From NCBI RefSeq assembly GCF_016026235.1, contig NZ_CP065613.1: a DNA stretch of 64,000 nucleotides; one strand, given 5' to 3'. This document shows, one piece after another, positions 43,365 to 43,674 of this stretch. Below the pieces are notes generated by a model. It did no database searches. It worked only from the letters and a program-made list of their open reading frames with translations, and was not told where the DNA came from. The stretch's first letter is position 1; every line of letters begins with the position of its first letter. Made by a program: the position numbers and the translations under genes. This stretch comes from Escherichia coli (GTDB taxonomy: Bacteria; Pseudomonadota; Gammaproteobacteria; Enterobacterales; Enterobacteriaceae).

Positions 43365-43439
43365 TGGAGCGGGCAGCGGGAATCGAACCCGCATCATCAG
43401 CTTGGAAGGCTGAGGTAATAGCCATTATACGATGCCCGC
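43365..43439 (-). tRNA. tRNA-Gly (anticodon UCC)
   Basis: cloverleaf by eye; sequence matches recalled E. coli glyT. Confidence 0.75.
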
Positions 43440-43442
43440 ATA

Positions 43443-43518
43443 TGGTGCCGACTACCGGAATCGAACTGGTGACCTACTGATTACAAGTCAGTTGCTCTAC
43501 CTACTGAGCCAAGTCGGC
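43443..43518 (-). tRNA. tRNA-Thr (anticodon UGU)
   Basis: cloverleaf by eye, anticodon loop CUUGUAA, encoded CCA. Confidence 0.7.
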
Positions 43519-43520
43519 AC

Positions 43521-43597
43521 TGGACCGCCACCGGGGACTCGAACCTCGCACACTCAACTTAAAGGGTTGACGCTCTTTCCTGATGAGCTAGTGGCGG
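43521..43597 (-). tRNA. tRNA-like gene, atypical anticodon loop CCUUUAA (UUU, Lys-like with C33)
   Basis: acceptor, D and anticodon stems pair; position 33 is C and T-stem has an A-C mismatch. Confidence 0.5.
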
Positions 43598-43598
43598 T

Positions 43599-43674
43599 TG
43601 GTGGCCCTTGCTGGATTTGAACCAGCGACCTGGCGATTATGAGTCGCTCGCTCTCACCACTGAGCTAAAGGGCC
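43599..43674 (-). tRNA. tRNA-Ile2 (anticodon CAU, ileX/ileZ-like)
   Basis: anticodon loop CUCAUAA; close to recalled ileX sequence. Confidence 0.75.

Follow-up and report, generated by a model that had tools for sequence, protein, structure and literature searches.

An array of four transfer RNA (tRNA) genes in an Escherichia coli prophage contains one gene that, as far as its sequence tells, is a phage-borne, anticodon-switched tRNA without U33. The array occupies positions 43365-43674 of a 64,000-nucleotide (nt) stretch of contig NZ_CP065613.1 (assembly GCF_016026235.1), hereafter the window. The gene in question, at 43597..43521 on the minus strand, is the third of the four by coordinate and the second in transcription order after an Ile2-type gene, and is referred to below as slot 2. 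An earlier note on this DNA had described a late operon with normally folding Gly(UCC), Thr(UGU) and Ile2(CAU) genes and an atypical third gene, with anticodon loop CCUUUAA, C at position 33 and an A-C mismatch in the T-stem, which it took for either a decaying tRNA or an unusual Lys-like tRNA. ARAGORN placed the four genes at exactly these coordinates, and the peculiarities of the third were read at the same positions: C33 at 43564, the anticodon UUU at 43563-43561, and A51 (43546) facing C63 (43534).

Slot 2 is a real tRNA gene

The slot 2 RNA reads CCGCCAC-UA-GCUC-AUCAGGAAA-GAGC-G-UCAAC-CCUUUAA-GUUGA-GUGUG-CGAGG-UUCGAGU-CCCCG-GUGGCGG-U-CCA, a cloverleaf with stems of 7, 4, 5 and 5 base pairs that the general tRNA covariance model detects. 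With the Rfam model RF00005 it scored 44.4 bits, which is 20-28 bits under its three neighbours (Gly 64.9, Thr 72.5 and CAU 72.5) and still above the gathering score of 29. ARAGORN called the gene Lys(UUU), and RefSeq, whose PGAP pipeline uses tRNAscan-SE, labels identical sequences tRNA-Lys; neither a different anticodon nor a verdict that the gene is no tRNA, either of which was named beforehand as grounds for giving up the assignment, was returned. The window allele has all the universal tertiary bases (U8, A14, G18-G19, A21, G53-C61, U54-U55-C56 and A58), together with A20, A37, discriminator U73 and an encoded CCA. Its anticodon loop has 7 nt with the purine A37, but C33 stands in the place of U33, and the A51·C63 mismatch leaves the T-stem not fully paired. 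These results demonstrate that slot 2 is a real tRNA gene.

Poor folding was considered as an argument against this assignment and rejected: although another structure has the minimum free energy, the cloverleaf lies 2.7 kcal/mol above it, a gap like those of genuine tRNAs (2.2 kcal/mol for host lysT). A shifted register, in which the loop would be read as UUA (ochre) or CUU, was set aside on inspection since no alternative stem register pairs. Leaving aside spurious antisense matches to Plastid-ycf2, Rfam assigned neither the region nor its relatives to any other family.

An arginine tRNA scaffold with an altered anticodon loop

Slot 2 and lysT of E. coli K-12 have in common only the universal positions and the anticodon. 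Over its full length, slot 2 aligns with argN, the tRNA-Arg(UCG) of Shiga toxin (Stx) phages, which stands directly after an identical ileZ, and it is 84% identical to argN of phage F349. The known prophage genes for tRNA-Arg (UCU, UCG and CCU), exemplified by the ileZ-argN-argO array of Stx phages, likewise follow Q and tR'. Slot 2 resembles Stx-phage argN in acceptor stem, D-arm, T-arm, A20 and U73, and F349 argN has A51·C63 as well; A51·C63 and U73 were therefore inherited. In the anticodon stem the two differ by a double change, G30-C40 to A30-U40, and by U27·G43 to U27-A43. Unlike the argN and Arg(UCU) loops, CUUCGAA and CUUCUAA, the slot 2 loop CCUUUAA lacks both C35 and U33 and presents an anticodon for lysine codons.

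The nearest canonical relative was found among viral contigs that had been sampled with the neighbouring Ile2 tRNA, and not slot 2, as the anchor. It is a tRNA-Arg(UCU) with an identical anticodon stem, UCAAC-CUUCUAA-GUUGA as against UCAAC-CCUUUAA-GUUGA in slot 2, and the two loops differ at two positions only, U33C and C35U. The commonest array in this Ile2-anchored sample was Ile2-Arg(UCU)-Thr(UGU)-Gly(UCC). Single-step intermediates carrying only U33C or only C35U were searched for in IMG/VR and none was found as a tRNA; the same collection held no U33 revertant and no slot 2 copy with a base other than C33.

In E. coli, LysRS identity rests on UUU and A73, and ArgRS identity on A20, C35 and U/G36 (PMC9976931). 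Slot 2 has A20 and U36, with C35 replaced by U; on the lysine side it has UUU, whereas A73 (here U73) and homology to the lysT family are missing. Judged by these elements, arginine identity would be lost and lysine identity only partial. The alignments indicate that slot 2 derives from a phage arginine tRNA of the argN/Arg(UCU) scaffold and is not a diverged tRNA-Lys.

The suggestion of a decaying or unusual Lys-like tRNA was a fair hedge, either half of which may hold, but the body of the gene is not that of a tRNA-Lys and the window allele is intact. Nor does the A-C mismatch denote recent decay, because pair 51-63 varies among G·U, A-U, G-C and A·C in the wider family and the functional-looking F349 argN shares A·C. 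Phage Evi and the PPompW prophages have the Lys-like gene in the place of argN, ahead of Arg(UCU). A G3·U70 acceptor pair, the classic alanine identity pair, is present in F349-type argN and in the slot 2 alleles of PPompW and phage Evi; the window allele has G3-C70.

Distribution and lesions of slot 2 alleles

The slot 2 gene is present in 797 of 5426 complete E. coli genomes (~15%), and 278 of these 797 carry the exact window sequence. Among 40 evenly sampled copies, 18 were annotated as tRNA-Lys and 22 were unannotated. Deposited phage genomes (ON470583.1, ON470580.1, LR597642.1) are inconsistent on the gene, which is unannotated in 689R5, 606R7 and Evi; the PhiR47_1 and PPompW records name it tRNA-Lys, the D-stem-deleted allele included.

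More than half of the copies in complete E. coli genomes carry lesions in the D-arm or at position 8. The unannotated alleles comprise a C4U+U8C+C11U haplotype, a 1-nt D-stem deletion that is common in Shiga toxin-producing E. coli, and further derivatives. In some Stx2c-converting phages a 12-nt deletion has removed the anticodon loop, and the acceptor and T-arm remain. Common variant alleles have lost universal bases (U8C, G18A), and variant alleles and were not detected by Rfam at E <= 0.5. The discriminator among slot 2 alleles is U73, with G73 in one and A73 in none. These other alleles (U8C, D-stem deletion, loop deletion) resemble tRNA pseudogenes or relics, unlike the window allele, in which every stem is preserved along with U8, A14, G18-G19, the T-loop and CCA, and whose only defects are C33 and A51·C63.

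The lesions found at high frequency were C4U, C11U and C70U (each producing a G·U pair), U8C, the U12 deletion, U45A and the 12-nt loop deletion. All of these common lesions spare the acceptor and T-arm helices, and the changes that break pairs there, G52A and G66A, are rare. Polymorphism was counted in 72 loci homologous through the downstream spacer, where segregating sites numbered 4/76 in Ile2, 12/77 in slot 2, 8/76 in Thr, 6/50 in Gly and 36/292 in the spacer; the comparison of slot 2 with the spacer gave p = 0.45. Subsets of the population disagreed, one hinting at conservation of slot 2 and another at neutrality. We regard the lesion spectrum as more telling than the polymorphism tests.

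A wider family of scaffolds with aberrant loops

A scan for the ends of the scaffold in one genome per species, with a search pattern that fixed both gene ends, located it at 51 loci in Enterobacterales. Among them are Arg(UCG/UCU/CCU) genes of canonical form and a single Lys(UUU) that looks canonical. Most of the 51 have aberrant anticodon arms, with loops of 4, 5, 6, 7 or 8 nt, A33, C33 or G33, and a pyrimidine at position 37. A33 is found in the loops CAUUUAA of Buttiauxella, CAUAUAA of Hafnia and CAUUGCC of Yersinia phage YeP2 (in whose record an antisense open reading frame (ORF) over the tRNA-like gene is annotated as a hypothetical protein). Loops of 6 nt occur in Serratia (CAUUAA) and Edwardsiella, and the copies of Citrobacter and Klebsiella differ almost only in their tetraloops, UUUU, UUUA, GUAC and AUAC. 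Among these aberrant members E. coli slot 2 is the most tRNA-like, with 44.4 bits as compared with 39.1, 38.4 and 32.9.

Many members have canonical CAU, Thr(UGU) and Gly(UCC) genes as their array neighbours, and others are in what looks like a chromosomal, non-prophage context. In the Ile2-anchored sample a scaffold member came next in 46 of 118 arrays, represented by 27 distinct sequences, mostly of 73-75 nt with 5-6-nt loops on near-identical bodies (for example CCAGGU, CACGGU, CUUGGU and UAAAU). ARAGORN was often unable to assign an anticodon to the array member next to Ile2, as in prophages of Serratia, Buttiauxella, Citrobacter, Klebsiella, Edwardsiella, Hafnia and Yersinia.

The stems of these genes behave differently from their loops. 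In 42 distinct family sequences, pair 7-66 was U-A in 26, C-G in 15, U·G in 1 and C·A in 0, the search pattern having allowed all four. Pair 51-63 in the same sequences was G·U in 24, A-U in 11, G-C in 5 and A·C in 2. The T-stem stays paired across the family, whose loops run from 3 to 9 nt. The covariation at pair 7-66, the paired T-stem and the variable loop thus indicate that the core is maintained and the loop is free. The papers that we searched did not describe this hypervariable-loop scaffold family, nor was the slot 2 gene described in the literature on ileZ/argN/argO, prophage tRNA-Lys or tRNA-like decoys.

One further member, of 81 nt, lies on the E. coli chromosome under the hypothetical ORF 'yahM' (for example NZ_CP102378.1 345334-345414). 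It has a 7-bp 'anticodon' stem and a 6-nt loop, CCAGGA, and resembles tRNA relics. Of the 5426 complete E. coli genomes, 5168 contain this element, in no case with an RNA annotation. The E. albertii copy is 100% identical, a hint of constraint.

Codon usage of the late genes

The earlier note had proposed a comparison of codon usage, and this was carried out between the late genes of the prophage and the flanking chromosomal genes. The late genes were enriched, per 1000 codons, in GGA+GGG (34.5 vs 19.7), ACA (14.0 vs 9.3) and ATA (8.8 vs 7.2), and AGA+AGG was also enriched. Lysine codons were not, with AAA+AAG at 47.9 in the late genes and 53.0 in the flanking chromosome. Codon supply therefore suits the three canonical tRNAs of the array and not Lys. 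A use of slot 2 at a lysine slippery site of a tail-chaperone frameshift was also considered and rejected; the X XXA AAA heptamers numbered just three, all of them weak, and none was near the end of an ORF.

A possible processing role in a packed array

The explanation that we tentatively place first is that slot 2 is a former arginine tRNA, now a weak or idle tRNA with a lysine anticodon, which is kept as an RNase P-cleavable unit of a packed array. In its canonical design, Ile2(CAU)-Arg(UCU)-Thr(UGU)-Gly(UCC), the array has four tRNAs that each read rare codons. The transitions U33C and C35U would then have abolished the U-turn base and the arginine identity base C35, respectively, and turned the anticodon into the UUU of lysine. 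The slot 2 RNA would still be transcribed, both from the array's own promoter and within the Q-dependent late transcript, and would still be excised, since its acceptor stem, its T-arm and the CCA have all been preserved. What RNase P recognises is the acceptor/T-arm domain, and the anticodon arm is dispensable for it. Since the spacers are 1-3 nt long, a cut at the 5' end of slot 2 would free the 3' end of Ile2. We infer that as a decoder slot 2 is probably weak or idle, because C33 would impair ribosome binding, U73 is poor for LysRS, and lysine codons would not be limiting; U33 enforces the U-turn that is needed for ribosome binding (PMC13276492). Selection would in this case act on the acceptor/T-arm half, leaving the D-arm and anticodon arm free to drift. 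Such a processing role accounts for a core that is conserved and covaries, a loop that is free in all these genera, and the kinds of lesion that are tolerated.

Several points weigh against this explanation. The processing role is drawn from what is established in general about the substrates of RNase P. No single slot 2 allele is commoner than the intact one, and two deposited phage genomes have a stem-intact gene, 606R7 with the exact sequence and Evi with three substitutions. When the loop was compared in ~125 loci, with the anchor placed in the D-arm, C33, UUU, A37 and A38 were invariant and only position 32 and one stem base varied; an invariant loop without revertants is also expected from selection for exactly this loop. 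The t6A (N6-threonylcarbamoyladenosine) determinant 36-UAA-38 is retained in slot 2 and is independent of U33; bacterial TsaBD makes no base-specific contact with that base (PMC13276492). The polymorphism of slot 2 (12/77) did not differ significantly from that of the neighbouring tRNAs (18/202, p = 0.13), and relaxed constraint is therefore not demonstrated statistically. Finally, among 26 closely related prophages slot 2 showed 2 differences where ~26 would be expected at the spacer rate, a rate that recombination may inflate.

Alternative roles of slot 2

A possible but rather doubtful alternative makes slot 2 a functional spare tRNA-Lys, which is charged by LysRS by way of its UUU anticodon, reads AAA/AAG in late expression and escapes host nucleases that cut tRNA-Lys. 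The prime targets of AriB, the nuclease of PARIS, are E. coli tRNA-Lys(UUU) and tRNA-Thr(UGU), with Asn(GUU) as a secondary one; the site is U36-A-A-U39-C40-A41, cut between C40 and A41, and cleavage is abolished by U39A and reduced by A41C, with a contribution of D-loop U16-U17 (PMC12409363). Slot 2 has G39-U40-U41 and C16-A17 instead of the host's U39-C40-A41 and U16-U17. It lacks the AriB determinants and is so predicted to be AriB-insensitive. Variant tRNAs of T5 rescue infection (PMC12409363; PMC11464382), and lambda, which has no tRNA genes, is restricted by PARIS (PMC9122126). T5 tRNA-Lys(UUU) resembles slot 2 as a viral UUU tRNA that differs from host tRNA-Lys at AriB positions 39 and 41 and in the D-loop (PMC11464382, PMC12409363). 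It is, however, a true homologue of tRNA-Lys whose loop is canonical and whose function has been demonstrated, unlike slot 2 with its arginine scaffold, C33 and U73.

The position of the gene can be read in the same way. Asn(GUU) and/or Thr(UGU), likewise AriB targets, are found in the post-Q slot of other lambdoid phages, where codon bias does not explain Asn (PMC3636060). These tRNAs of SfI, Sf6, ST64T and 21 share the Q-to-lysis location and form a mix with and without a codon rationale (PMC3636060), but unlike slot 2 they are canonical. PrrC cuts immediately 3' of U33 (PMC2610378), where slot 2 has C33, and we found no data in the literature on PrrC with C33. Slot 2 is similar in this respect to the phage tRNAs proposed to evade nucleases through the anticodon loop, its substitution lying beside the bond between positions 33 and 34 that PrrC attacks (PMC10264068); in that survey coliphage tRNA-Lys(UUU) is reported to be unmutated and protected by repair enzymes, and position-33 changes and temperate phages are not covered. 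A role in nuclease evasion would further agree with the failure of codon supply to explain a tRNA-Lys, and with the invariant loop, which has no revertant and keeps 36-UAA-38.

Other points speak against this alternative. The arginine scaffold alone would confer insensitivity to AriB, so C33 is left unexplained, and U33C was without effect on the only anticodon nuclease tested for it, yeast gamma-toxin (PMC2275089). U73 has been retained and no A73 allele exists. The Thr(UGU) gene of the same array retains an unchanged AriB site, U36-A-A-U-C-A41, and the majority of slot 2 copies are degenerate.

We consider it unlikely that slot 2 belongs to a distinct class of non-decoding, tRNA-shaped RNAs located after Ile2, whose hypervariable loop acts on tRNA-targeting enzymes or another fast-evolving partner, for example as a decoy or competitor. 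The conserved acceptor/T/D core, with covariation across genera, and the loop of 3-9 nt with highly variable sequence would suit such a class, and competitive-inhibitor roles have been proposed for other tRNA-like RNAs (PMC7790460) and for overexpressed viral tRNAs (PMC12409363). The E. coli member, however, has a normal 7-nt loop and the highest tRNA score of the aberrant set, hypervariable loops are equally expected if selection acts only on the acceptor/T half, and the first family sample was partly ascertained by a pattern inside the scaffold. Very improbable, and rejected here, is an ordinary codon-supply tRNA-Lys that boosts late-gene translation: the other array members do match codons over-used in the prophage and both ARAGORN and RefSeq call slot 2 tRNA-Lys, but lysine codons are not enriched in the late genes, one cluster in K-12 already contains five or more lys(UUU) genes, and C33 and U73 are both unfavourable.

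The tRNA array and its prophage setting

The four minus-strand genes lie between the Q antiterminator and holin genes of a ~44-kb prophage, in agreement with the late-operon position given earlier, Q, the tR'-type terminator, the array and the holin gene all being on the minus strand. The prophage is bounded by a 31-nt direct repeat (14184-14214 and 58223-58253) that corresponds to the 3' end of tRNA-Ser(CGA), and it is integrated at serU; its integrase gene is at 57155-58195. The possibility that slot 2 is a remnant of an attachment site was rejected, the gene being in the middle of the prophage and the true attachment repeat at serU. On the minus strand the order is a DUF968 gene, RusA, Q, a pR'-like promoter, a tR'-type terminator, a second promoter-like site, the four tRNAs, a hairpin, holin, lysozyme and Rz, and the spacers inside the array are 1, 2 and 3 nt. 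The features around the array, in order of transcription, are as follows.

43873..44562 (-), Q antiterminator gene (PHROG 304, E = 1.6e-107; RefSeq annotation of a relative)
43856..43884 (-), pR'-like sigma-70 promoter, TTGCAA-17-TATATT, at the end of the Q gene (consensus scan)
43776..43805 (-), tR'-type intrinsic terminator, CCGCCCACAAGCGGG followed by a U-run, upstream of the array (sequence; Nil3 and VT2-Sakai have annotated equivalents)
43684..43712 (-), promoter-like site, TTGCAA-17-TATTAT, with its end ~10 nt short of the first tRNA (consensus scan)
43599..43674 (-), tRNA of Ile2 type, anticodon CAU (ARAGORN, Rfam; RefSeq calls identical copies tRNA-Ile)
43521..43597 (-), slot 2, tRNA of the argN/Arg(UCU) scaffold by alignment, loop CCUUUAA (ARAGORN, Rfam, alignments)
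43443..43518 (-), tRNA-Thr(UGU) (ARAGORN, Rfam; thrU comparison)
43365..43439 (-), tRNA-Gly(UCC) (ARAGORN, Rfam; glyT comparison)
43307..43363 (-), very stable hairpin that immediately follows the array and lacks a U-tract (-23.8 kcal/mol, z = -4.5, 0/200 shuffles fold as well)
42857..43072 (-), holin gene, the first late protein gene (PHROG holin families; RefSeq annotation of a relative)

The location of the promoter at 43856..43884 relative to Q and the terminator would fit the layout of a lambdoid late promoter. At the same relative position as the site at 43684..43712, a 'putative tRNA promoter' is annotated in VT2-Sakai, and this predicted promoter may allow Q-independent transcription of the array. 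The hairpin at 43307..43363 is possibly a processing or stabilising element.

The other three tRNAs are normal, as the earlier note had it. Gly(UCC) is 100% identical to K-12 glyT, Thr(UGU) equals K-12 thrU except for A9G, and the CAU gene is identical to ileZ of Stx phages. At position 9 of Thr(UGU) (43510) the window has G, in contrast to the A of host thrU and of most related prophage copies; among the 72 loci G was found in 7 and C in 3.

Other features of the region were noted in passing. Spurious ORFs run antisense over the tRNA genes at 43432-43620 (+). The spacer between Q and the tRNAs in relatives shows a weak, sub-threshold likeness to the prophage small RNA IsrK (22.7 bits against a gathering score of 50). 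Rfam matches above the gathering score were the sok antitoxin at 46575-46750 (-), DicF at 53759-53810 (+), CssrB at 15595-15774 (-) and IS009 at 14635-14838 (-), all four within the prophage, and rseX at 5341-5430 (+).

Implications

Annotation pipelines either label slot 2 an ordinary tRNA-Lys or miss it. Should the RNA be charged and put to use, it would represent the first equivalent, in a temperate phage, of the anti-PARIS tRNA of T5, and a natural elongator tRNA that works without U33. If it is idle, it would provide a clean natural case of tRNA death in a packed array, with the anticodon changed first, the D-arm decaying next, and the half recognised by RNase P preserved. In either case, the tRNA content of a prophage is not to be taken as codon supply. 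Slot 2 leads, moreover, to a larger and undescribed group of aberrant-loop, tRNA-like genes in Enterobacterales, one of which resides in the core genome of E. coli.

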